A stretch of 47,472 bases of DNA from a virus. Its lineage: Duplodnaviria > Heunggongvirae > Uroviricota > Caudoviricetes. This document shows positions 4,494 through 30,313 of the stretch, piece by piece. The stretch lies in the IMG/VR virus record IMGVR_UViG_2698536559_000020; one strand, given 5' to 3'. A program made the translations under genes and the position numbers. The stretch's first letter is position 1; each line of letters opens with the position of its first letter. The notes beneath the pieces are model-generated. The model saw nothing but the letters and a program-made list of their open reading frames with translations, had not been told where the DNA came from and did not search any database.

Positions 4494-5318
4494 TCAGGCG
4501 GTGAAAGTACCAATAAAGGTTTCTACTTTGCTGTCTTTGAATTTCTCAACAAGCAGATCACGAAATTCGTTAGCCATTTCTTCCTGCATCGCTTCCAGCT
4601 GAATAATGCGCAGAACCAGTACAGGACGATCGCCAGTGATAATGCTGAGGCGTAATTTAAACGGACGTTCTTTCAGGCCTTCAAACGGAACGCATTTAAA
4701 TTCAAATGCCACTGGCATAATGTCTTTGGTTTTCGCTTCGACAGACTCCATCAGAGAGCGTTTGCCGCTGAAGTCATTGTCTTCAAAATCAGCGGTCTGG
4801 TTTGCTTCAATTGTGATTTTACGGACTGCCGCAGCCGCTTTGGTTGCCTGAATGGTGTCACCATTAGCATCAAAGCCCACAAGGTAGTCGGCCCAGTCTT
4901 CAATCCATTCTGCCAGTGACTTCTGGGAGTTACGCTCGCCGTTAACAGACAACAGGGCAGAGAACGGTGCTGTCTTTTTCAGTTTGAGAGTGGCGGTGTT
5001 ATCTGCGTGACCTGGTTCATCAATAGTACCCAGGTTAAGCACACTGACGGCTCGCATATTATCGGCATCGATAAAGCAGCGGGTGCCTTCATCTGCAAGA
5101 TCTTTAGAATAACGGGTAAAGTCATCGATGCTGGCAGTGGAAAGCGCACCACGGAAACGGAAGCGATTTAAATTAAATTTTTCCAGATCATGAATGCGGA
5201 AATTTTCAGGTAATGCCACTGCGTCGGCACCAATCTTACTGATAATTTCATTAACACCCTGAGCAGAAATAAGGGCATGGATTTGATTAATTGCGGTTGC
5301 GTCTAAGTTCTGAGACAT
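4494..5318 (-). CDS. YfdQ-like (DUF2303) prophage protein, 274 aa
   Basis: size and position next to the HD hydrolase match the CPS-53/KplE1 yfdQ-yfdR pair; recognition by recall only. Confidence 0.5.
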
Positions 5319-5383
5319 AATAAGTCCTCACTATATAAAGATATTCAGTGATGAGATAAATAATCAGTTAATTAAGAACGATA

Positions 5384-5746
5384 TTAATGACCTGCTGCGC
5401 GGAGTTTTCCGTCAGGTTCACCGGCAAGAGTCAGTAATTGTCCCTGGTCTTCCTGCAGAATAGTCAGGCGACCACCGCGATTGACATACATCGGCGTTTC
5501 GGTGGTGTCTTCTTCGGAAATTTTCCCGCGGTTAGTCGGGCGAACATATGAGAGTTTGTGTTTGATTTTCACACGGTTCTCATCAAATGGTTCGATTTCC
5601 AGGTTGAGTGAGACCTTCCCTTTGGTTTTCGTGTTCATCACACCGGAAGCGACTTCACTGAGAACTGCGCCGATTTTGGTTTCAAATACGCCGCCGTCCA
5701 GCTCCCCGATAAATGCCTGCACATCAGTACTGCGTTCGCTAGCCAT
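5384..5746 (-). CDS. hypothetical early protein (120 aa)
   Basis: ATG at 5746 preceded by GAGGAG 7 nt upstream; the track ORF extends to 6064 but that extension is GC-rich Arg/Pro/Cys-rich sequence with no RBS. Confidence 0.5.
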   Translation of the reverse strand: MASERSTDVQAFIGELDGGVFETKIGAVLSEVASGVMNTKTKGKVSLNLEIEPFDENRVKIKHKLSYVRPTNRGKISEEDTTETPMYVNRGGRLTILQEDQGQLLTLAGEPDGKLRAAGH

Positions 5747-5759
5747 TTTGCTGCTCCTC

Positions 5760-6157
5760 ATCATATCGACCCTGCAAGGTCGGTTGGTTTCTCCACAAAA
5801 CAGAGAAGAACACCTGCGGTGGCAGCCGCCCGGATGGATTGGGTTATGAGCCCGTCGTCCGGTGATGCTCTTCTCTGTTTTGTAAAAAGAGCGGTACCAG
5901 CCGGAAGCAAGTGTACAAACTGGTACCGCCAGGACTACACACAGCATAAAGTTGTGGTGCCGGGTGCCTCCCGGTGCCTGGCGAAGGTTGCACACCAGGC
6001 GGGTGGGTATCCACAGAAGGTCGACTGTCAGCCTCAACCTTAACCCGCGTGCGCTGAGCCGCATTCACCACAACGCTAAGGATTCTCTCTGGTTGAAAAT
6101 ACTTAGCTGTTATGTGCCTGCTTTTAGCCACATCAGGCGAGGTGGTAGGTACGTGAG
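5760..6157. other. GC-rich structured non-coding block (candidate ncRNA or terminator/attenuator cluster)
   Basis: about 400 bp with no credible ORF (ORFs of similar length in several frames, all Arg/Pro/Gly-rich); 11 bp inverted repeat AACAGAGAAGA/TCTTCTCTGTT with T-run on both strands; 8 bp GGTACCAG/CTGGTACC stem; CGCCAGG/CCTGGCG stem. Confidence 0.3.
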
Positions 6158-6532
6158 CTACTTGGTGGTATTTGCCTTCGATGAGGCAAGATAGGCATCA
6201 AGATCACTTTTTAGGTAAATAACCTTTCTACCGATTTTTAAAAAAGGTATTCGAACTTTTCCTGTGCTAGCCCAATTAGCTAAGGTTTGCGCTTCTACGC
6301 CGATATAGGCTGCGGCGTCTTCTCTATTCATTTTTTCATGTTGTTCTGACAGAATACTCGTTGCTTCAAAATCAAAGCCCAGCCTTTCAAAGGCATAGAT
6401 AATAGAGCCCAAAGCCATTTGTTTAACTGTTCTGTAGTTACTGCTTTCAACTTGGCTTAATGCAGTTTTTGCTGCTTCAATCACCACAAGCCAGGCATCT
6501 CGTTGGTTGTCGATACTGCCATCCATATTCAC
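6158..6532 (-). CDS. HTH DNA-binding protein (AlpA/excisionase-like HTH at C-terminus), first gene of the leftward operon
   Basis: ...YIGVEAQTLANWASTGKVRIPFLKIGRKVIYLKSDLDAYL... matches MerR/AlpA-type excisionase-like HTH. Confidence 0.5.
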   Translation of the reverse strand: MNMDGSIDNQRDAWLVVIEAAKTALSQVESSNYRTVKQMALGSIIYAFERLGFDFEATSILSEQHEKMNREDAAAYIGVEAQTLANWASTGKVRIPFLKIGRKVIYLKSDLDAYLASSKANTTK

Positions 6533-6621
6533 TCTCCTGCCATGTGCGAATCATCCGGTCATTCATACGCCACCGTCGGCTACTTCGTGGGAGTCCTGCC
6601 TGTTCGTTACTGCAACATCTT

Positions 6622-6665
6622 TAAGTTGTAATCTAGTTGTTGTTTTGGTTGTTGTCAACAACTTT
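6622..6665 (-). promoter_or_regulatory. leftward early promoter (pL-like) with overlapping operator half-sites
   Basis: on the minus strand TTGACA (6658-6653), 17 nt spacer, TAGATT (6635-6630); AAGTTGT / ACAACTT operator-like motifs shared with the cI-cro intergenic region. Confidence 0.5.
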
Positions 6666-6720
6666 ATGTGGTTTTGACGGATGTGAAATGGGGGCTAGGG
6701 TTATCAAAAAAGGAGGTTGT

Positions 6721-6825
6721 ATGGACGATGCGCTTTTAATTACACAATGGACACTTTCCTTCCGTGATTGGAAACTCTCAAATCACGGGAGGAAGATTGA
6801 AAAGGCGGGTAATAATGGTAACTAA
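6721..6825 (+). CDS. candidate small protein (34 aa) between OL and the cI 3' end
   Basis: strong SD AAGGAGG with 5 nt spacing to ATG; short; no homology recognised. Confidence 0.3.
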   Translation: MDDALLITQWTLSFRDWKLSNHGRKIEKAGNNGN

Positions 6826-6852
6826 ATTTCTGAAGGAGTGTTTTTTGATGCA

Positions 6853-7539
6853 TTACCAAGTGCGCGATGACCAGAATACTCTACCTATAACGTGAATTCT
6901 GGAACGCCTATCTTCGAAGGTGAGTATTTCATCTGGATACTCATCTTTATTGAAACTTCTTAGAATCAGACCACCGTCAGGTAAATTGATCAATATTTTA
7001 ACTCTAAGTAATACGCCATCACGTATAGCATAAAGATCCCCATCACGAATAGGAACTGTTTGGGAAACATCAACAGCAACAAAATCTCCATTGTTAAGTA
7101 CAGGTAGTAAACTATTACCCCAAATTTTTACGATCTTTGCATTGGAGACACATACACCAGCTTTCCTTAAATCAATCCTTCTTAGCGGGAACCAGTCTAC
7201 AGTTGATTCAACTATTTCAGCCAAACATCCATTACCCGCTGATAACTCGACATCTAGGACAGGAATGTTTGCAAAAATGTCAGGATCTAATGTTGTACTT
7301 TCAGCCTCCTTTACAACAAGGTTTGGGAAAGACGCGTTATCCTCAATGCCCAATTGCAACCACTTTTGAGAAACCCCTAACACTTTAGCAATCTCTTTAA
7401 TTTTCCGAGGCTGTTGAGTTTCTCCATTCTCGATTTTCGCTACGGATTGTTGTGAAAGCCCAATTTTTTCAGCTAGTTGCGCCTGACTCATTCCTGCTTT
7501 TTCTCTTTCGCTTTTTAGTCTTTCTGCCAATGTTTTCAC
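6853..7539 (-). CDS. CI-like prophage repressor (XRE HTH plus S24 LexA-like peptidase domain); GTG start
   Basis: N-terminal HTH (…MSQAQLAEKIGLSQQSVAKIENG…) and C-terminal S24 autocleavage domain; GTG start with GAGGGGG SD; divergent from a cro-like gene. Confidence 0.8.
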   Translation of the reverse strand: MKTLAERLKSEREKAGMSQAQLAEKIGLSQQSVAKIENGETQQPRKIKEIAKVLGVSQKWLQLGIEDNASFPNLVVKEAESTTLDPDIFANIPVLDVELSAGNGCLAEIVESTVDWFPLRRIDLRKAGVCVSNAKIVKIWGNSLLPVLNNGDFVAVDVSQTVPIRDGDLYAIRDGVLLRVKILINLPDGGLILRSFNKDEYPDEILTFEDRRSRIHVIGRVFWSSRTW

Positions 7540-14673: not shown

Positions 14674-14749
14674 GGCCCTTTAGCTCAGTGGTCAGAGCGA
14701 GCGACTCATAATCGCCAGGTCGCTGGTTCAAGTCCAGCAAGGGCCACCA
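14674..14749 (+). tRNA. tRNA with CAU anticodon, ileX-like (tRNA-Ile2 lysidine type, or tRNA-Met)
   Basis: cloverleaf deduced by hand; anticodon loop CTCATAA; close to E. coli ileX sequence; CCA encoded. Confidence 0.75.
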
Positions 14750-14750
14750 G

Positions 14751-14827
14751 CCGTCACTAGCTCATCGGGACAGAGCATCAACCTTCTAAGTTGATTGTGC
14801 GGGGTTCAAGTCCCCGGTGACGGTCCA
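14751..14827 (+). tRNA. tRNA-Arg (UCU)
   Basis: perfect 7 bp acceptor stem CCGTCAC/GTGACGG, anticodon loop CTTCTAA, T-loop TTCAAGT, CCA encoded. Confidence 0.7.
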
Positions 14828-14829
14828 GT

Positions 14830-14905
<76 letters not shown>

Positions 14906-14908
14906 TAT

Positions 14909-14983
<75 letters not shown>

Positions 14984-23549: not shown

Positions 23550-25482
23550 AGAGGCGCTGATCCTGGCGCGAGGATGTGCCGTTCCGGCCCCGCCGATGTC
23601 CTTAAGCCAGTGGGCCAACACCTTCGCTGTACTTTCCCGTGAGACCAGTGCCCAGACGGGGAAATTCCGCTCCTATCCCTATCAGGACGGCATGATGGAT
23701 GCCATCACAGACCCGTCGGTCACGTATGTGTCAGTGATGAAATCAGCCCGTGTGGGATACACGAAAATTCTTGACCATGCGGTGGGCTATTACCTGGCAC
23801 ATGATCCGTCCCCCATCCTGGTGGTTCAGCCGAGGGTGGAGGACGCCGAAGACTACAGTAAAACCGAAATTGCCCCGATGCTGCGCGACACGCCGGTGCT
23901 GGCAGCCATCAGCGGCGACCCGAAGGCAAAAAACAGCAACCAGACCATTCTTCGCAAAACCTTTTCCAACGGCGCAAACCTCACGCTGGTCGGGGCCAAC
24001 TCCCCCGGCGGGTTTCGCCGTATCACATGCCGCATCATCCTTTTTGATGAGGTGGACGGGTATCCGGCAGGGGGCGCAGGATCCGAAGGGGATCAGATTG
24101 CGCTGGGAACAAAACGTTCCGAAACCTTCTGGAACCGCAAGATTGTGCTCGGCTCCACGCCAACCGTGAAAGGCGTGAGCCGTATTGAAAAAGCCTGGCT
24201 GGAAAGCGATCAGCGCCGCTACTTCGTGCCCTGTCCTCAATGCGGGGAATATCAGGTGCTGGAGTGGGGCAGCAAAAGCACCCCTTACGGCATCAAGTGG
24301 GAAAAGGACAGCGAAGGAAACGGGCTGCCGGAGACCGCTTACTATCTGTGCCGCCACCACGGCTGTGTGATTGTGCACAGTGAACTGCCCGGGATGCTGG
24401 CAAAAGGCGAATGGCGTGCCGGTGCACCATTCAGGGGGCATGCCGGTTTTCATATCTGGACGGGATACAGTCCACACTCAAATGCTTCCTGGCCGAATCT
24501 GGTCGCCGAGTGGCTGAGGGTGAAGGACGATCCGCTGATGCGCCAGACATTCATCAACACCACGCTGGGCGAGCCTTACGAGGATGCAGGCGAGTTTGCG
24601 ATGAGTGAGCAGCGGCTGATCGCCCGCGTTGAGGTCTGGGGGGCGGAGGTGCCGCATGGCGTGCTCCTGCTCACCGCCGGGGTGGATACACAGGATGACC
24701 GCTTTGAAATCACCGTTCTCGGCTGGGGCATGAACGAAGAGTGCTGGGTGATTGCGCATGACGTGATTTTTGGTGACCTGGAAACAGAAGAGCCGTGGGA
24801 GCGCCTTGACGCGTATCTGAAACAGGTCTGGCGGCGGGCTGACGGTTTCGGGCTGACGGTTTCGGCAGTCTGTCATGACTCGGGCGGTCATCACACCAAC
24901 AAAGTGTACGAGTTCTCGAAGGCGCGTATCGGGCGTCGTATCTGGGCGACAAAAGGTGAGTCCGCCACTGGCGGCAAACGTAATCCCGTCTGGCCGACGC
25001 GTGTCGTTTCGTCCCGCAACCGGAAATCCTTCCGCCCCGTCATTCTGGGGGTGAACTCCGCGAAGGACGACATCAGGCACCGGCTGCATATTGAGCCGGA
25101 TCCGGCAGGCGCGCCGACCGCAGGCTGTATCCATTTTCCGTCGTTTCTGGATCTGCACTATTTCAGTCAGCTGCTCTCTGAGCGTCTGGTACGTAAGGAG
25201 AGCGGCGGGCAGGTGTACCGTGTCTGGGAGTTGTCTTCCGGGCGGGCGAATGAGGCGCTGGACTGCATGGTGTACGGTTACGCGGCCCTGAAGGGGCTGC
25301 TGCATCACGGCCTGAAACTGAACCGTCTGGCTGAACGGGCGGCGCAGGATCTGTCGTTTATGGCGCCGCCTCCCGCGCAGCCGGAAGAAAAAATCAGTTT
25401 AAGTATGCCGGGCGCAAAAGCACCGGAGACACCCCGTAAGAAAATACCGCTGCATATGAGGCTTGCAGGAGTGAGACGATGA
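23503..25482 (+). CDS. terminase large subunit (lambda gpA family); start may be at 23518
   Basis: …VKSARVGY.K.L…, …IL.DEVD…, …CP.CGE.Q.L.WG…, …FHIWT.YSP…, …NTTLGE.. match lambda A. Confidence 0.85.
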   Translation: MNLELMTGHPPEIQFEEALILARGCAVPAPPMSLSQWANTFAVLSRETSAQTGKFRSYPYQDGMMDAITDPSVTYVSVMKSARVGYTKILDHAVGYYLAHDPSPILVVQPRVEDAEDYSKTEIAPMLRDTPVLAAISGDPKAKNSNQTILRKTFSNGANLTLVGANSPGGFRRITCRIILFDEVDGYPAGGAGSEGDQIALGTKRSETFWNRKIVLGSTPTVKGVSRIEKAWLESDQRRYFVPCPQCGEYQVLEWGSKSTPYGIKWEKDSEGNGLPETAYYLCRHHGCVIVHSELPGMLAKGEWRAGAPFRGHAGFHIWTGYSPHSNASWPNLVAEWLRVKDDPLMRQTFINTTLGEPYEDAGEFAMSEQRLIARVEVWGAEVPHGVLLLTAGVDTQDDRFEITVLGWGMNEECWVIAHDVIFGDLETEEPWERLDAYLKQVWRRADGFGLTVSAVCHDSGGHHTNKVYEFSKARIGRRIWATKGESATGGKRNPVWPTRVVSSRNRKSFRPVILGVNSAKDDIRHRLHIEPDPAGAPTAGCIHFPSFLDLHYFSQLLSERLVRKESGGQVYRVWELSSGRANEALDCMVYGYAALKGLLHHGLKLNRLAERAAQDLSFMAPPPAQPEEKISLSMPGAKAPETPRKKIPLHMRLAGVRR

Positions 25483-25730
25483 TGAATACCCCCGGCGTGT
25501 TTGCCGGAATGTCAAAAGAACAACTGAAGGCGGCACTGAATGAAGCTCAGGCGGCCTATATTGAGCTGCTTTCAGGGCGGCGTGGCGTGAGTTTCTCCTA
25601 TGCACAGGGGGACGGCACGCGCACCGTGACTTATTCACAGGCCAGCAGTGCGGATTTGCTGGCGCTGATCGCGACGCTCCAGCGGGCGCTGGGGATAAGG
25701 ACGAGAAGGTCCCTGAGCGTGCGTTACTGA
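25479..25730 (+). CDS. head-tail joining protein, lambda gpW-like
   Basis: size and position between terL and portal. Confidence 0.55.
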   Translation: MMNTPGVFAGMSKEQLKAALNEAQAAYIELLSGRRGVSFSYAQGDGTRTVTYSQASSADLLALIATLQRALGIRTRRSLSVRY

Positions 25731-25738
25731 GGTGAGCG

Positions 25739-27379
25739 ATGATAGTCGATAAAAATGGCAGACCTTTTCCGCAACAGACGGAAAAAAAACGCGCACTGAA
25801 TGACAGCGGGCGTATCCCCTACGACTCTGCCGGTTTCTCGCACGGTTCGGTGGCGGGCTGGAACCCGGTACTGTGGTCACCGGACAATGAAGTGAATATC
25901 TGGCGCAACCGTATGGTTGCCAGAATGCGCGACCTTGTCCGCAATGACGGCTGGGCGAATGGCAGTATCACCCGCCTGCTGGACAATGCCATGGGGGTGG
26001 TTTTTCGCCCGAGGATGAAGCCTGACTACCGGATGCTGGCAGAGATGACCGGCAACCGGGCATTTGATGCAGACTGGGCGGATGAGTACGGGCGTTGTGT
26101 GGAAGCGCACTGGCGCAACTGGGCCGGTGATGCCGGGTGTTACTGCGACCTTGAGCGCAGACAGACCCTGCCACAGCTTTTCCGGCTGGCATTCCGCCAC
26201 AAGATGGTCGACGGCGATGCGCTGGCGGTCATCCACTGGCGACCGGACAGAATAGCCCCCGGTCGCGGGCGCTACAGTACGGTGGTGCAGGTGATTGACC
26301 CTGACCGGCTGAGTAACCCGAACGATGCGTTTGACCAGCCGCATATCCGTGGCGGTGTGGAAATTGACGCGGACGGGGTGCCGGTGGCCTATCACATCCG
26401 GTCCGCACACATGGGGGACTGGTGGAGCGGCAGTGACACGATGCACTGGGAACGCGTGCCGCGTGAAACGTCGTGGGGAAGGCCGGTGGTGGTGCATGAC
26501 TTTGATCATGACCGTGCGGGCCAGCACCGTGGTGTCGGTATTCTCAATCCCGTGGTTCAGCGTCTGAAAATGCTCATCAAGTACGACCAGGTGGAGCTGG
26601 AAGCCGCCATCATCAATGCCATGTTCGGTTTTTTCATCACGTCGCCCTATGACCCGAAACTGACAGAAGATCTGATGAGTGACGCGGAGGTGATTAATGG
26701 CTACCAGGATGCGCGCATGAAGTATCACGATACTAACCGGATTTCGATGTCGGGCGTGCGTATTCCCATCACGTTCCCCGGCGAAGAGCCAAAAGCCGTG
26801 AGCGCCGCCCGCCCGGTCAGTAACTTCAAGGAGTTCGAGGGCACGGTGCTCAGGAATATTGCCGCCGCGCTGGGGCTGTCCACCCAGCAGGTGACGCAGG
26901 ACTGGTCTGATGTGAATTACAGCTCTGCCCGTGCGGCACTTCTTGAGGCGTGGAAAACACTGACCCGCCGTCGTGATGAGTTTGCGGTTGGCTTTGCCCA
27001 GCCGGTGCTGACGGCGTTTCTGGAAGAGCTGCACGAAGAAGAGGATTTGCCGCTGCCTGCGGGTGCACCGGACTTTCTGGCGGCACGGGCTGCTTACACC
27101 CGCGCCCAGTGGATGGGACCGGGGCGCGGCTGGGTGGATCCGGTCGCGGAGAAAAAAGGGGCGATTCTGGCGATGGAGGCCGGCATGTCCACGCTGGAAA
27201 TCGAAGTGGCCGAGAACGTGGGGGAAGATTTCGAGGATATTCTCGACCAGCGGGCGCGTGAAGAGCGGGCCTTTAAGGAAAGAGGCCTGACACCGCCTTC
27301 CTGGTTTCAGGCAGAGCAGTTTGCCCCCACACCGACGGGGAGCGCCCCGGCAGAGCCGAAGGAGCCTGATGTTTCATGA
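25739..27379 (+). CDS. portal protein (lambda gpB family)
   Basis: …RDLVRNDGWANGSI… and overall similarity to lambda B. Confidence 0.85.
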   Translation: MIVDKNGRPFPQQTEKKRALNDSGRIPYDSAGFSHGSVAGWNPVLWSPDNEVNIWRNRMVARMRDLVRNDGWANGSITRLLDNAMGVVFRPRMKPDYRMLAEMTGNRAFDADWADEYGRCVEAHWRNWAGDAGCYCDLERRQTLPQLFRLAFRHKMVDGDALAVIHWRPDRIAPGRGRYSTVVQVIDPDRLSNPNDAFDQPHIRGGVEIDADGVPVAYHIRSAHMGDWWSGSDTMHWERVPRETSWGRPVVVHDFDHDRAGQHRGVGILNPVVQRLKMLIKYDQVELEAAIINAMFGFFITSPYDPKLTEDLMSDAEVINGYQDARMKYHDTNRISMSGVRIPITFPGEEPKAVSAARPVSNFKEFEGTVLRNIAAALGLSTQQVTQDWSDVNYSSARAALLEAWKTLTRRRDEFAVGFAQPVLTAFLEELHEEEDLPLPAGAPDFLAARAAYTRAQWMGPGRGWVDPVAEKKGAILAMEAGMSTLEIEVAENVGEDFEDILDQRAREERAFKERGLTPPSWFQAEQFAPTPTGSAPAEPKEPDVS

Positions 27380-28236
27380 ATCAACTTGCACTGTTAAGCC
27401 AGCGCCTGCTGAACACGCCGCTGGCCCTTCATCCGCGAAAAGCGGAAATCATTGTTACGGCACTGGCAGAACGACTCGGGATCACCCGGATAAAAACGGG
27501 GGCCTGGTATGACGATGATGAAGACGATTTCTGCCGTCCCGCCCGTGAAAGCGGGTACGACATTCTGGAGGGGATCGCCGTTATTCCCGTGCACGGCACC
27601 CTGGTACAGAAACTGGGGATGCTGCGGCCTTACTCCGGCATGACGGGGTATGACGGCATCCGGCGAAATTTTCTGACGGCGCTTAACGACCCTGATGTGA
27701 AGGGCATCTGTCTTGATATCGATTCCCCCGGCGGAGAAGTGGCCGGGTGTTTTGATCTGGTGGACACGATTTTTGCCTGTCGCGGGCAGAAACCGGTGCA
27801 CGCCATTCTCTCGGAGTCGGCGTACTCGGCGGCCTATGCCCTTGCCAGCGCCGCCGACCGGATCCTGGTCCCCCGCACGGGTGGCGTGGGGTCCGTTGGT
27901 GTCATCTATGTGCACTGTGACATGTCGCGCCAGATGAAGGATGAAGGGCTGAACGTGACCATCATCACCTGTGGCAGCCGGAAGGCGGAGACCAGTCCGC
28001 TGCGTCCGCTGAGTGAGGCGGCACAGGCAGCACTTCAGGCGGACATTGACGCCGCAGGTACGCTTTTTATCGAAACCGTTGCCCGCAACCGTGGCATCAG
28101 CGCGGATGCGGTGCGTGCACTTGAGGCCCGGACGTTACGGGCTGACGAAGGGGTGCAGGCAGGTCTTGCCGACGATGTGATGTCACCGGATGAGGCCTTT
28201 TCTTTTCTGTTAAAGGAGACAGCAAACAATGCGTAA
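27376..28236 (+). CDS. head maturation protease (lambda gpC / S49 family)
   Basis: …LRPYSGMTGYDGI…DIDSPGGEVAG… matches lambda C. Confidence 0.8.
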   Translation: MNQLALLSQRLLNTPLALHPRKAEIIVTALAERLGITRIKTGAWYDDDEDDFCRPARESGYDILEGIAVIPVHGTLVQKLGMLRPYSGMTGYDGIRRNFLTALNDPDVKGICLDIDSPGGEVAGCFDLVDTIFACRGQKPVHAILSESAYSAAYALASAADRILVPRTGGVGSVGVIYVHCDMSRQMKDEGLNVTIITCGSRKAETSPLRPLSEAAQAALQADIDAAGTLFIETVARNRGISADAVRALEARTLRADEGVQAGLADDVMSPDEAFSFLLKETANNA

Positions 28237-28801
28237 ATTTTCTTTCATGCACCTGGTAGGCATGGGCGGTCGTTCGCGAATGGATGACGATCCGGAGGAC
28301 AAACGCGACGACGAGAATGCGGAGGAGGACGAGGACCGCCGCGAAAGTCGTAAGGCACGCTCCCGTGCGGATGACGATAACGACGACGGGCAGGCGGAGG
28401 AGGACGAGGACCGCCGCGAAAGCCGCAAGGCGCGCTCCCGTGCGGATGATGACGATAACGACGACGATGAAAACGCAGAAGACGACAATGACGAAGAAAA
28501 GGCCCGCGCCAGCGAACGTCATCGCTGCGCAGCCATCTTCGCCACGCCGTATGCAGCGAAAAATCCGGCCCTTGCCGCAGAGCTGGCCTTCAACACCCGC
28601 ATGAGTGTGAAACAGGCCAGAGCGGTGATGAAAGCGGCGGTGGCAGGAGGCGCAGGTCAGAAAGGTGGACTGACTGCCCGTATGCAGTATGCACCACAGC
28701 CGGGAACCGGACGTGATGTCCGCCCTGCACCGACGGAGGCGCACGCGATGGCACAGCACGCCATGAAACTGTACAACGAGGCTATGGGGGGTAAAGCATA
28801 A
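28229..28801 (+). CDS. scaffolding protein (Nu3-like) with acidic internal direct repeat
   Basis: C-terminal segment resembles lambda Nu3; two copies of EEDEDRRESRKARSRADDD. Confidence 0.55.
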   Translation: MRKFSFMHLVGMGGRSRMDDDPEDKRDDENAEEDEDRRESRKARSRADDDNDDGQAEEDEDRRESRKARSRADDDDNDDDENAEDDNDEEKARASERHRCAAIFATPYAAKNPALAAELAFNTRMSVKQARAVMKAAVAGGAGQKGGLTARMQYAPQPGTGRDVRPAPTEAHAMAQHAMKLYNEAMGGKA

Positions 28802-29202
28802 TGAGCACATACGGAAACAACCCGTCGGCACCGGGTTACTGGTCGGACGCATACCAGCCGGACCAGCTGCTGTGCGGACCGCTTCAGGTGGTCACAAAAA
28901 CCGTGACCATCACCGGAGGAGAGGTATACCTGCGCGGTACGGTGCTGGGGCGCATCACGGAAAGCGGCGCGTACACCCTCTGCACACAGGGGACGGGGGT
29001 GACGGACGGCAGCGAAACGCCGGTGGCGATTCTGGCTGACCTGGCGGATTCTTCCTCCGGTGATGTGCTGGCTGGCGTCTACCTGATGGGTGAGTTCAAC
29101 GCAAACCGGGTCATTTTTGATGAAAGCTGGGACATTGACGATCTGTGCGTGGCGCTGGAGAAAGAGAAAATCTTTCTGCGCAACCCGGTCACGGTGCCCT
29201 GA
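28801..29202 (+). CDS. head decoration protein (lambda gpD-like)
   Basis: size and position between scaffold and major capsid. Confidence 0.6.
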   Translation: MSTYGNNPSAPGYWSDAYQPDQLLCGPLQVVTKTVTITGGEVYLRGTVLGRITESGAYTLCTQGTGVTDGSETPVAILADLADSSSGDVLAGVYLMGEFNANRVIFDESWDIDDLCVALEKEKIFLRNPVTVP

Positions 29203-29257
29203 TCCCCACTGAGAGCCTGACAGCCGCATGATGCGGCTTTTTTTATGGAATTTTTTC

Positions 29258-30313
29258 ATGAGCGAAAAAGACTTTAATCTGCTGTACGACACCGCGTTTC
29301 TGGCGCAGGTGGTGCCGAACCTGTTTGTGGCCCAGAACTGGCTGCTGGACAGTTTCTTCCCGAATATCGTGCTGAGCGATACGGAGTCCGTGGCCATTGA
29401 CGTGGAAGTGGGCGCACGCCGTATGTCGCCGTTCTGCTCCCCTCTGGTGGAAGGACCAATGGTTGAGGCCCTGCCGTATCAGACCAACATCTTCAAACCG
29501 GCCTACATCAAGGACAAGCGCGTTCCCGATTTGCTTCGTCCGGTGCGCCGTATGATCGGCGAACGCCTGGGCGGGCGTGAGTACACGCCAGCAGAGCGTG
29601 CAATGCTGAACCTCCAGTACGAGATGGCCGACCAGATCAACATGCTGAACCGTCGTCTTGAATGGATGGCGGCACAGGCGCTCCAGTACGCGAAGGTGAC
29701 GATAGCCGGTGAGGGCTACCCGACCACGGAAGTGGATTTTCGTCGTGACAGTGACCTGACGGTGACGCTGAGCGGTGATGATGTCTGGCCTTCTGAGGAA
29801 AGCAGCACGATCCCGACCACCTGCCTGGAGGCGTGGGCGACGCTGATGCTGAAAAAATCCGGTGCGTACCCGACCGAGGTGATTTTCACGCCGTCGGCCT
29901 GGAAGGCGTTCATGAACGACAGCTTCATTCGTGAGAACGCCATCAACATGCCCGCCCTGAACCCGACCAGCAACGTGGTGAACCCGGGGACGCAGATCAA
30001 CACCGGTGCGGTGTACAAGGGCAAATGGGGTAACTTCAACCTCTGGCTGTATAACGACTGGTTCATCGATCCGGATGACGGAACCGAAAAACCGATGCTG
30101 GATGACGGCAACGTCATTCTGACCGGAGCAGCCCTGATGGGAACCCGCGCGTTCGCCTGCATCATGGATCCGGCGTTTAATTACGGCCAGATGGCCTATG
30201 CCCCGAAAATGTGGGATCAGCAGGATCCGGCACAGCGTTTCCTGATGATGCAGTCGGCACCGATTGTCATCCCGTCCCGTGTCAATGCGTGCCTGTGCGC
30301 GTCGGTGGTGTGA
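29258..30313 (+). CDS. major capsid protein (lambda gpE family)
   Basis: C-terminal …GTRAFACIMDPAF…DPAQRFLMMQSAPIV… aligns with lambda E. Confidence 0.8.
   Translation: MSEKDFNLLYDTAFLAQVVPNLFVAQNWLLDSFFPNIVLSDTESVAIDVEVGARRMSPFCSPLVEGPMVEALPYQTNIFKPAYIKDKRVPDLLRPVRRMIGERLGGREYTPAERAMLNLQYEMADQINMLNRRLEWMAAQALQYAKVTIAGEGYPTTEVDFRRDSDLTVTLSGDDVWPSEESSTIPTTCLEAWATLMLKKSGAYPTEVIFTPSAWKAFMNDSFIRENAINMPALNPTSNVVNPGTQINTGAVYKGKWGNFNLWLYNDWFIDPDDGTEKPMLDDGNVILTGAALMGTRAFACIMDPAFNYGQMAYAPKMWDQQDPAQRFLMMQSAPIVIPSRVNACLCASVV

Follow-up and report, generated by a model that had tools for sequence, protein, structure and literature searches.

A modular non-coding RNA locus in the early-left operon of a phage, probably a mimic of the host small RNA RprA built on an STnc100/PasD-type fold

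Positions 5760-6157 of the phage DNA analysed here (IMG/VR record IMGVR_UViG_2698536559_000020, Caudoviricetes; the window, 47,472 nucleotides) are a modular non-coding RNA locus on the minus strand rather than a gene desert. Judged from its sequence, the locus joins a divergent STnc100/PasD fold to the target-binding end of RprA, and the phage probably makes a mimic of this host biofilm and stress sRNA. The reading that we favour, with moderate confidence, is that transcription from pL yields an Hfq-type sRNA mimicking processed RprA, whose terminators also gate the downstream early genes.

The GC content is 0.575 in 5800-6099, against 0.36-0.49 in the left flank and 0.39-0.43 in the right flank, which is matched with the high GC described in an earlier note on this DNA. 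The placement of the block inside the leftward early operon, also given there, is well founded. A cI-like repressor gene (6853-7539) encodes HTH_3 and Peptidase_S24 domains, and downstream of it lies a pL-like promoter, the sole minus-strand site found by promoter scan of 5300-7000, with the HTH_17 gene as the first gene of the operon (Table 1). The 5' UTR of this gene (about 6533-6600) is the same leader that runs straight into module M1 in phage Flotzy, so the HTH_17 gene has been inserted where the pL leader would otherwise meet the RNA unit. The promoter scan gave no sigma-70 promoter next to the RNA unit, and inspection of the M1 region by eye showed nothing better than weak hexamers. If the RNA unit is dependent on pL, it would be silent in a stable lysogen. 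On the other side, the start codon of yfdP is at 5746.

We agree with the earlier note that the block has no credible coding frame. ORFs of 49-95 aa exist in several frames and none is conserved; yfdP has an in-frame upstream extension of 226 aa, which is likewise unconserved. In pairwise comparison with three orthologues the indels were mostly not multiples of three. Seven of eight indels break the frame in ST64B and 14 of 16 in Flotzy, and mEp460_4F5, at 97% identity, differs by indels of 1, 3 and 4 nt. The RefSeq record that we examined annotates nothing over the block but a 'frameshifted hypothetical protein', which is a pseudogene call by PGAP. A conserved coding frame, named beforehand as an observation that would speak against a non-coding element, was looked for in the orthologues and none was found.

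The strand of the early leftward operon is also the strand that folds best against shuffles. The minus strand has a minimum free energy of -173.7 kcal/mol versus -135.9 +/- 5.7 in shuffles (z = -6.66; none of 100 shuffles folded as well), and the plus strand has z = -4.77. Two stems reported before are present and longer than described: the 11 bp perfect inverted repeat near 5800 and 5868 (AAAACAGAGAAGA / TCTTCTCTGTTTT) lies within a 25-nt repeat of 84% complementarity (5795-5819 / 5859-5883), and the 8 bp stem of 5892-5926 is a perfect 10-nt repeat (5891-5900 / 5920-5929; GCGGTACCAG / CTGGTACCGC). A third, CGCCAGG / CCTGGCG, is a perfect 7-nt complementarity in the window (5927-5933 / 5977-5983) but is not conserved in the ST64B orthologue; its 5977-5983 strand alternatively forms hairpin P4, which recurs with differing sequences in the family. 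Structured RNA and terminators were both proposed by the earlier note, which overlooked the long-range helices and the fold-defining loop pairing, including the perfect pairs of P1 (9 nt) and of the P4 loop (7 nt). Comparison among relatives for compensatory changes, proposed there as a check, showed that the stems covary. The block is a chain of RNA modules conserved among mosaic phages, with helices backed by compensatory changes.

Table 1. Features of the RNA locus and its surroundings (positions in the window)
Feature	Position	Strand	Basis or remark
pL-like sigma-70 promoter, TTGACA-17 nt-TAGATT	6630..6658	(-)	Promoter scan, 10/12 matches
First pL gene, 124 aa, HTH_17 domain	6158..6532	(-)	Pfam HTH_17, E = 3.8e-9
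M1, conserved 5' leader ACCACCUCGCCUGAUGUGGCUAAAAGCAGGCACAUAAC	6110..6147	(-)	Conserved in phages with differing flanking genes
P0 hairpin (GCUAAGUAUUUUC...GAGAAUCCUUAGC), directly 5' of the core	6075..6107	(-)	Inverted repeat of 13 nt, 85% complementary
STnc100/PasD-type structured core	5951..6074	(-)	Rfam STnc100 match, helices, covariation
P1	5951-5959 with 6066-6074	(-)	9 nt, perfect
P2	6047-6062	(-)	5 bp, bulged A6050
P3	6001-6004 with 6043-6046	(-)	
P4	5977-5983 with 5993-5999	(-)	
P4 loop pairing	5984-5990 with 6035-6041	(-)	Pseudoknot or alternative pairing
P5, CCGGG-AGGCA-CCCGG	5960-5974	(-)	
Single-stranded 21-nt linker UUUAUGCUGUGUGUAGUCCUG	5930..5950	(-)	Conserved between differing core and terminator
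Intrinsic terminator, stem GCGGUACCAG / CUGGUACCGC (5920-5929 with 5891-5900), then UCUUUUU (5884-5890)	5884..5929	(-)	
M5, long hairpin opening into a three-way junction	5795..5883	(-)	20-pair outer stem, arms A and B
Small hairpin (GACCUUGCAGGGUC) and yfdP Shine-Dalgarno GAGGAG	5747..5789	(-)	Sequence, fold, RefSeq yfdP annotation

The main body of the block matches a known family on the minus strand, where the earlier note could recall no matching RNA. The Rfam search suggested there aligned the STnc100 model (RF02076) over its full length (model 1-206) with 5882-6104(-), at 46.5 bits and E = 1.8e-8; the score is 0.5 bit short of the gathering score of 47 bits, and the block is unlisted at the gathering threshold. 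The same model gave 40.6 bits on the phiES15 orthologue and 35.1 bits on that of ST64B. The hallmark helices P1, P2, P4 and P5 are all present in the window; P5 and the core of P1 are identical to the family consensus, and P2 is preserved by compensatory GC/CG changes. The alignment ends within the terminator hairpin. Other Rfam families (DicF, ftsZ-DE, mir-9412) scored at chance level. Identity with PasB was considered and rejected: that RNA has 83 nt, and the block lacks its probe AATCCCGCAGTGATCGCGGAGCT.

RNAalifold on 35 family members recovered P1, P2, P3 and P5 with double changes in 7 of 20 pairs; at the P1 column 4/140, for example, 17 members have GC and 15 have AU. P5 becomes GGUGG-AGGCA-CCACC in the Klebsiella and Flotzy orthologues, and the P5-P1 motif was found in more than 120 IMG/VR contigs, in 106 distinct contexts. 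Since MAFFT alignments of the whole family put P4 and the loop pairing out of structural register, the loop pairing was tested in each sequence separately with a permutation control. At least 12 different complementary sequence pairs occur across the family, and the complementarity of each loop with its own partner beat 2000 of 2000 permutations. This loop-to-strand pairing is seen neither in the Rfam STnc100 consensus line nor in the RNAalifold-based description in a 2026 preprint.

Relatives of the core are known to be expressed and bound by Hfq (PMC8550237, PMC12370729), and STnc100 and PasD relatives are Hfq-dependent sRNAs visible on Northern blots (PMC8550237). PasD1 and PasD2 accumulate as terminated sRNAs of about 170 nt, and a strong terminator follows within about 20-50 nt after most copies in the family. 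The usual context of STnc100 is the late region, downstream of Q or stx and upstream of the lysis genes; we confirmed it for the members HK639, L009 and L114, and the window copy is early-left instead, with no second copy in the rightward or late operon. A conserved knotted core of about 125 nt exceeds by far the needs of an RNA that only delivers a seed, which speaks against the RprA mimic as the whole of its function. The conserved, covarying long-range loop pairing is a property of the STnc100/PasD family, and so much structure suggests a role beyond seed delivery.

Two further modules stand 5' of the core. In M1, CCAC:GUGG is interleaved with GCCUG:CAGGC, together with an A-rich third loop. 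Among 21 variants the second stem covaries (GCCUG:CAGGC, GCCCGG:CCGGGC, CGCCC:GGGCG) and the first merely lengthens, and because this covariation is limited M1 is only a candidate H-type pseudoknot. Its 5' edge is a mosaic boundary near 6147, with BLAST matches stopping at 6146-6147. The P0 stem is retained with other sequences in ST64B (GAUAAGAG / CUCUUAUC), phiES15 (GAAGCGCAUU / AAUGCGCUUC) and Flotzy (GAAAGCGCACUC / GAGUGCGCUUCC).

On the 3' side of the core, the linker carries the 14-mer UGCUGUGUGUAGUC (5933-5946(-)), which lies 3 nt before the terminator stem and is identical to the invariant 3' seed of RprA. A scan of contigs with this 14-mer returned one E. coli copy, many chance matches and host rprA genes, and the identity with RprA was found through the last of these; the RprA sequence of E. 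coli K-12 was also compared. In the rprA genes of Citrobacter, Pantoea, Xenorhabdus, Yersinia, Pectobacterium, Edwardsiella and others, the same 14-mer immediately precedes the terminator. The earlier note did not notice this identity of the single-stranded stretch, which we rank above all other clues to function. ST64B (with one inserted base), phiES15, Kp4866-6 and Flotzy all retain the linker, despite differing core and terminator. Through the base of the terminator, 17 of 19 positions of the window match RprA. The Rfam RprA model (RF00034; gathering score 70 bits) gave no match in the window even at E up to 10, and on the seed and terminator of Flotzy and phiES15 it gave 43.2 and 41.0 bits, both below 70. 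The 5' half of RprA with the rpoS-pairing region, which we take to be AUCCCCUG...AACGAAUU, is absent, and upstream of the seed there is the P1 strand of the STnc100-type core. A literature search of incomplete coverage for a phage RprA-like RNA found nothing, and an earlier description is possible.

In the csgD leader, ACUACACACAGCA (csgD -97 to -85) is complementary to the phage seed at all of its 13 nt. By duplex energy 33 of 500 shuffles were equally good, and our argument is based on the exact complement at the mapped site, not on energy. Within the seed lies the GCUG whose pairing with csgD has been demonstrated by experiment for RprA; nucleotides 60-105 of RprA alone down-regulate csgD, and a complementary RprA mutation suppresses the mutation of csgD CAGC (-87 to -90) (PMC3465796). 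A processed RprA of 47 nt exists in vivo and is active (PMC9262595). A target complementary to the seed was found nowhere else in the window. Rather than a seed, the conserved 14-mer could be a signal for protein binding or for processing that came with a borrowed terminator module.

The element that follows the linker has the anatomy of an intrinsic terminator, with a GC-rich stem-loop of 10-13 bp and a U tract; it folds into a 13-pair stem of -27.2 kcal/mol (z = -3.4). A simple terminator scanner missed it because the loop of 15-19 nt exceeds the limit of 8. Every orthologue has a GC-rich hairpin with a U run at this position, and the stem sequences are unrelated.

Behind the terminator stands M5, whose outer stem contains the 11-bp repeat and whose arm B is a short variable hairpin. 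Its structure is backed by 13 diverse copies, with 92.2% of cells paired versus 41-55% when partners are slid, 11 pairs changed on both sides versus 5.7 +/- 1.4 in shuffles (0 of 500), and a covariation of 0.219 versus 0.114. The tip of arm A, CGGGCUCAUAACCC (5841-5854), is identical to the anticodon stem-loop of initiator tRNA-fMet, which is a 14-nt identity to positions 29-42 of E. coli metY. M5 may be a second terminator or a processing site. The phage ncRNA and the terminator cluster that the earlier note had offered as explanations are thus both covered, by structured RNA and by terminator-type hairpins. A tRNA or tmRNA at 5795-5883 is rejected, as ARAGORN and the Rfam tRNA model find only four tRNAs in the window, at 14674-14983. 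Klebsiella phage Chronis also has the M5 motif, in its late region and a short way downstream of tRNA-Asn.

In phiES15, Flotzy, SfII and L082 the orthologue of the block likewise stands early-left, after a repressor of the S24 or cI type. In related phages the seed-plus-terminator module is joined to several differing 5' domains, and mEp460_4F5 keeps the core and has its linker, with the seed, swapped for another. Of 5426 complete E. coli genomes, 2860 have a match to the block, which in 1157 cases covers at least 80% of the 501-nt query.

As we picture it, the repressor-controlled pL transcript would carry M1, P0, core, linker and terminator in 5'-to-3' order, with the core as a multi-helix domain of about 125 nt in which the loop of one hairpin pairs with an upstream strand. 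Termination at 5884-5929 would give an Hfq-type sRNA of about 260 nt counted from M1, and by analogy with RprA and StxS it might be trimmed to a short 3' fragment. Because the linker shares 14 nt with the invariant RprA 3' seed, the phage RNA is predicted to be a trans-acting mimic of processed RprA. The seed would pair with RprA targets, among them site Ib of the csgD leader and probably dgcM/ydaM, and firing of pL would then repress regulators of curli and biofilm. In cis, the terminator and the three-way-junction hairpin would make yfdP, yfdQ, yfdR and the genes beyond dependent on read-through.

The block might, though we think it unlikely, be purely a cis-acting leader, in which a tL1/tL2-type terminator region of the pL operon serves polarity, RNA processing or stability, or translation of yfdP, and the RprA-like stretch, acquired with a terminator module through recombination with rprA, does nothing in trans. 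Its location after the first pL gene as in lambda tL1, the two terminator-type hairpins in tandem and the extra terminators within the leader of some relatives all fit such a leader, and the similarity to RprA reaches into the terminator in Flotzy and phiES15, as a recombined 3' module predicts. But the 14-mer is invariant while the neighbouring terminator stems are replaced by unrelated sequences, which argues for selection on the unpaired stretch itself; this stretch is moreover the experimentally mapped target-pairing region of RprA, and for relatives of the core discrete sRNAs that depend on Hfq do accumulate.

An extended form of the RprA mimic, which we offer as speculation that is rather doubtful as a whole, is an 'RNA toolkit' switched on at the very beginning of the early-left programme, in which the mimic, capturing part of the host Rcs/RprA regulon (csgD, dgcM and others), is combined with the STnc100/PasD core and with a decoy of the initiator-tRNA anticodon arm, and free recombination of seeds and 5' domains is a general route to host-mimicking sRNAs. 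The core could then bind a protein or polymerase, or switch between P4 and the loop pairing, and M5 could lure away initiation factors or nucleases that cut anticodon loops, such as VapC-type toxins.

It is improbable that the core is a cis antiterminator RNA like put of HK022, which would bind the transcribing RNA polymerase and cause read-through of downstream terminators in a phage without N. No N-like gene is evident here, the first pL gene encoding the HTH_17 protein; the family occurs in long read-through operons (late, just downstream of a promoter; the P1 ban operon; early-left), and a put-like mechanism was suggested for the related phage LLS as N is absent (PMC12315714). Against this, put is a two-stem RNA of about 70 nt (PMC9378689) and the fold here is a closed multi-helix one of about 125 nt, most copies are followed by a strong terminator, the related PasD1 and PasD2 accumulate as terminated sRNAs, and the window has one copy only, with none in the rightward or late operons. 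Kinship with put was also rejected by direct comparison: blastn of 5740-6700 versus HK022 24500-30100 gave chance matches (E of at least 2.3), and no hallmark of the family was found in the HK022 immunity/put region.

That the interval encodes a small protein or a longer form of YfdP is highly improbable, since the available ORFs, the yfdP extension, the PGAP pseudogene and the 'hypothetical protein' CDSs annotated across the region in SfII, SfIV, PhiR49_1 and others are outweighed by the mostly non-triplet indels (1 and 4 nt even at 97% identity), by substitutions that are compensatory inside RNA helices, by annotations that differ in frame and strand among phages, and by conservation that tracks RNA modules and not ORFs.

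If the seed that it shares with RprA is what the RNA works through, host control of curli and biofilm (csgD, dgcM) can be overridden or reinforced by a prophage element that is very common. The effect would come with each firing of the early promoter and would tie prophage induction to a community-level phenotype. The locus would also be a clean, testable case of host-sRNA mimics built by shuffling a seed-plus-terminator cassette among structured 5' domains.

Compared with known systems, the locus resembles STnc100, PasD1 and PasD2 in its closed multi-helix core, with P1 as UGGUG...CACCA, an AAU, a bulged P2 hairpin, a P4 hairpin and an identical P5 (CCGGGAGGCACCCGG), in the linker and intrinsic terminator after the core, and in its occurrence in enterobacterial lambdoid prophages; those relatives are Hfq-dependent and each has its own linker or seed. 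It differs from STnc100 in the sequences of P2 and P3, which are fully compensated, and in lying early-left after the first pL gene, whereas the usual site is between Q or stx and the lysis genes. The linker of PasD is UGUGAG, unlike the RprA-like linker of the window.

With RprA, which belongs to the core sRNAs of Enterobacterales and is Rcs-controlled, it shares the identical 14 nt, unpaired and directly 5' of the terminator, within what is called the 'highly conserved region' (RprA 60-105), and the orthologues in Flotzy and phiES15 also have an RprA-like terminator. Unlike RprA, it lacks the 5' half that activates rpoS and ricI, the terminator in the window is different, and its 5' domain has no relation to that of RprA, being much larger and richer in structure. 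RprA is under RcsB control, whereas this RNA is phage-borne and predicted to be under pL.

StxS, the pR'-tR' RNA of Shiga-toxin phage, is cut by RNase E and uses the rpoS site of RprA, DsrA and ArcZ; the 3' fragment thereby has the targets of host sRNAs, RprA among them (PMC7547250). The RNA described here is similar as a phage RNA predicted to be the promoter-proximal, terminated product of an antitermination-controlled operon. The late promoter is the source of StxS, which acts on the DsrA/ArcZ/RprA site to activate rpoS, whereas the present RNA is early-left and copies the other seed of RprA, that for csgD/dgcM.

Like put of HK022, it is structured, belongs to the early operon of a lambdoid phage that has no N, and precedes terminators; it differs in size and architecture, and in the terminator that follows, where relatives demonstrably stop. 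It is matched with lambda tL1 in map position after the first pL gene and in the anatomy of the intrinsic terminator, but in this locus the terminator closes a conserved, modular, sRNA-like unit at its 3' end, and a conserved three-way junction comes next.

The block at 5760-6157 is GC-rich, as the earlier note had described (G+C 0.575 in 5800-6099 versus 0.36-0.49 to the left and 0.39-0.43 to the right). The proposed leftward early setting was confirmed, with a repressor gene, a pL-like promoter and an HTH_17 gene preceding it on the minus strand. No credible frame exists in it, only short ORFs in several frames and an in-frame upstream extension of yfdP. Alignment of the block with seven orthologues also revealed no conserved coding frame, and the indels are mostly frame-breaking: 1, 3 and 4 nt in mEp460_4F5 at 97% identity, while ST64B has 7 of 8, and Flotzy 14 of 16, that are not multiples of three. 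Substitutions are compensatory pairs within RNA helices. The sole RefSeq/PGAP call is a "frameshifted hypothetical protein" pseudogene (L001 3062-3372, equal to window 5761-6071), and the RNA locus is annotated with small hypothetical CDSs in several phage records, inconsistent in frame and strand. These calls are probably mis-annotations spread by homology. Against dinucleotide shuffles, the minus-strand RNA folds with z = -6.66 and the plus strand with z = -4.77.

BLAST match edges cluster near 5770, 5931 and 6147. SfII keeps the block beside different genes, and ST64B aligns at 77% within the block with flanking genes unalignable at DNA level. The block is thus a mosaic unit. Of 5426 complete E. 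coli genomes, 2860 contain sequence that matches it.

Covariance-model search gave a full-length alignment of Rfam STnc100 with 5882-6104 on the minus strand (46.5 bits, E = 1.8e-8). The score is under the gathering score of 47 bits, which is why Rfam reports nothing for the block at its curated threshold. A second core copy was looked for in the window and not found. More than 120 IMG/VR contigs carry the 22-nt P5-P1 motif CACCGGGAGGCACCCGGCACCA, and its surroundings there amount to 106 distinct sequence contexts. All members share one order: (G/A)UGGUGAAU, the P2 hairpin, a short strand S1, a variable insert, CGCGG, the P4 hairpin, P5 (CCGGG-AGGCA-CCCGG) and CACCA closing P1. RNAalifold on 35 diverse members recovered P1, P2, P3 and P5, with double changes in 7 of 20 pairs; at one P1 pair, 17 sequences have G-C and 15 have A-U. 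The window P2 (GCGGC / GC-A-CGC) is a fully compensated form of the common CCCCC / GG-N-GGG, and P5 is GGUGG-AGGCA-CCACC, with three compensated pairs, in the Klebsiella and Flotzy lineages. Complementarity between the P4 loop and S1 takes at least 12 different forms across the family, including CCAGUC / GACUGG, AUCAGCR / UGCUGRU, CUGGUG / CACCGG and AGACUGACAAA / UUUGUCAGUCU; the window version is AAGGUUG / CAACCUU. Own-partner complementarity exceeded 2000 of 2000 partner permutations. Because the connecting loops are short, this pairing may be a true pseudoknot or alternative conformations.

The three inverted repeats reported earlier are all present, together with two further long-range perfect repeats (5951-5959 / 6066-6074 and 5984-5990 / 6035-6041). 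In the third stem (5927-5933 / 5977-5983) the P4 3' strand CGCCAGG can alternatively pair with CCUGGCG, a stretch that takes in the seed end and the first 3 nt of the stem of the terminator. This pairing is perfect in the window, but ST64B does not keep it and it is probably fortuitous; it could, even so, weaken the terminator. In the window 5977-5983 also pairs with 5993-5999, which gives the P4 hairpin recurring across the STnc100/PasD-type family.

Features in and around the block; modules were compared among ST64B, 118970_sal3, phiES15, Kp4866-6, Flotzy, SfII, mEp460_4F5 and further IMG/VR copies
Feature	Position	Strand	Remarks
S24/HTH repressor gene	6853-7539	minus	
Sigma-70 consensus	6658-6630	minus	sole minus-strand site in 5300-7000
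HTH_17 gene	6158-6532	minus	just before block
M1	6110-6147	minus	conserved leader; candidate H-type pseudoknot; covariation in one stem only
P0	6075-6107	minus	hairpin kept; sequence differs per lineage
Core	5951-6074	minus	kept
Linker	5930-5950	minus	almost invariant
Terminator	5884-5929	minus	GC-rich hairpin and U run in every lineage; stem sequences unrelated
M5	5795-5883	minus	20-pair stem, then three-way junction
yfdP, then yfdQ (DUF2303)			after block

The linker carries a seed shared with the host sRNA RprA. When genomes were scanned at species level for TGCTGTGTGTAGTC, a 14-mer from the linker, one E. coli prophage copy was found and, unexpectedly, the rprA genes of other genera (Citrobacter, Pantoea, Erwinia, Pectobacterium, Yersinia, Edwardsiella, Xenorhabdus, Photorhabdus, Morganella and others), where it stands directly 5' of the RprA terminator. 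The E. coli K-12 RprA reads ...AACGAAUUGCUGUGUGUAGUCUUUGCCCAUC... at the seed. Independently, the Rfam RprA model aligns with the seed and terminator of two orthologues, at 43.2 bits in Flotzy and 41 bits in phiES15, under the threshold of 70 in each case. RprA 60-105 is a "highly conserved region" that alone is enough for csgD down-regulation; nt 60-97 pair with csgD site I, the csgD change CAGC(-87 to -90) is suppressed by a complementary RprA change, and nt 45-75 pair with ydaM/dgcM (PMC3465796). A processed RprA of 47 nt is present and active in vivo (PMC9262595). The K-12 csgD leader holds ACUACACACAGCA, which is perfectly complementary to the phage linker over 13 nt and lies exactly at the CAGC(-87 to -90) site. 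By our estimate, the probability that a 400-nt block shares 14 identical nt with a 106-nt RNA by chance is a few in 10,000, and the position and conservation of the match add to the case.

The seed-plus-terminator cassette occurs in four settings: it follows the window-type core, it follows two further variants of the core, it follows M1 directly where no core is present, or it lies upstream of a core. In mEp460_4F5 the window core is kept and the linker alone is replaced (AGCCACUGCUUUGG for UUUAUGCUGUGUGUAGUCCUG, 5930-5950), at 97% overall identity and a net 8-nt length change, a clean seed swap. This linker is common to mEp460_4F5, mEp460 and Stx2a/Stx2c phages, and the cores of mEp460 and the Stx2a/Stx2c phages differ again. 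In Flotzy the pL leader, which matches the 5' UTR of the window HTH gene in sequence, continues straight into M1. It suggests that the RNA unit was ancestrally a promoter-proximal pL product; the HTH gene is an insertion in the window phage.

Relatives carry further elements around these modules. A covarying hairpin (CUUGG-N13-CCAAG, CUGG...CCAG or ACUGG...CCAGU) lies about 30 nt upstream of M1 in L311, L333, L349, L307, SfII (L132) and L127 and overlaps the ribosome-binding region of a divergent gene in all but the last; the window has no such hairpin. Canonical tRNA T-arm sequences (CUGGUUCRAUUCCAGAC and GGUCCGUUCGAUUCGGACACC) occur in two hairpins just 5' of the core on the minus strand of L255 (about 1860-1940), L128, L133 and L263, in phages Stx2a_1447, Kp4866-6 and 118970_sal3. 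The 300-400-nt pL leader holding them matched no Rfam family, and may form a larger tRNA-like structured leader.

In 13 diverse copies of M5, 92% of cells are paired, against 41-55% with partners slid, and both sides change in 11 pairs versus 5.7 +/- 1.4 in shuffles. Within it, CGGGCUCAUAACCC (5841-5854, minus) equals positions 29-42 of E. coli initiator tRNA-fMet (metY), the anticodon stem-loop with the hallmark G-C pairs and CAU anticodon. This stretch is the most conserved part of M5; variants keep CAU and change positions 37/38. The arm could act as a decoy, either of anticodon-loop nucleases or of initiation factors, or it could be what is left of a tRNA. The same element also lies directly downstream of tRNA-Asn or tRNA-Arg in Klebsiella phages including vB_Kpn_Chronis (L004, 1001-1051), with a YlcG-like gene on one side and lysis genes on the other, in the late region; its outer-stem sequence is different there. 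M5 is therefore an RNA module that moves independently. The window has a four-tRNA cluster at 14674-14983, plus strand (Met-CAU, Arg-UCU, Thr-UGU, Gly-UCC), presumably late region. Weak sub-threshold Rfam matches at 613-685 (rnk_pseudo 32 bits, P9 26 bits) are probably a terminator-like hairpin.

STnc100 and its relatives PasD1/PasD2 are prophage sRNAs; PasD is Hfq-dependent and visible on Northern blots (PMC8550237), and a 2026 preprint connects PasD with STnc100 (10.64898/2026.05.13.724894). Their usual home is the late region, whereas the window copy is early-left. We confirmed this home in HK639 (between Q and lysis genes, amid four annotated terminators), L009 (upstream of P21-type holin and lysozyme) and L114 (between a Pfam Antiterm Q protein and endolysin). 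Many late-region members (the IMG/VR loci L009, L023, L034, L037, L064, L067, L077 and L114 among them) have TTGAC-N17/18-TAAATT-like hexamers with variable spacers and a predicted start at GUGGUGAAU; there the RNA would be a promoter-proximal late transcript of pR'-tR' type. Some of these have no obvious terminator after the core. Several viral contigs (L012, L019, L036, L050, L059, L070, L075, L123) hold two core copies 267-4000 nt apart, which differ in S1/S1' pairs and linkers. In the P1-like phages P1 (L003, 1501-1532), P7, D6, SJ46 (L130, 1501-1630) and RCS47, the ban operon, controlled by C1, contains a related core, between tRNA genes/upl and tciA (TerB-like), near an annotated "dicF-like region". 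ST64B (L002, 5232-5308) has an isrK-family RNA over its gathering score (64.3 bits) in or near sb41, in the rightward early region, where a weak c4-a1b1 match was also seen.

We consider, with somewhat better than even confidence, that the block encodes a predicted Hfq-type sRNA, which would be transcribed from pL and stop at the intrinsic terminator; its unpaired seed would copy that of processed RprA, and the terminators would also gate the early genes downstream. That the block acts purely in cis, as a terminator or processing leader, is possible but rather unlikely. A put-like antiterminator is very improbable: no similarity to HK022 was found, the HK022 put architecture differs from the window RNA, a terminator follows most core copies within about 20-50 nt, and the related PasD1/PasD2 accumulate as terminated sRNAs. 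A coding gene in 5760-6157 is rejected on the frame-breaking indels and compensated helices.

The family of this fold is already described, and phage sRNAs mimicking host sRNAs are established. In the literature covered, which was incomplete, we found no description of an RprA-identical seed on a prophage RNA, of the early-left placement or of the covarying loop pairing. RprA has an rpoS-pairing half, whereas the phage RNA is without it. The precedent to which we liken the window RNA, as a phage mimic of host sRNAs, is StxS, a phage RNA that copies host-sRNA specificity including that of RprA and is active as a processed 3' fragment (PMC7547250).
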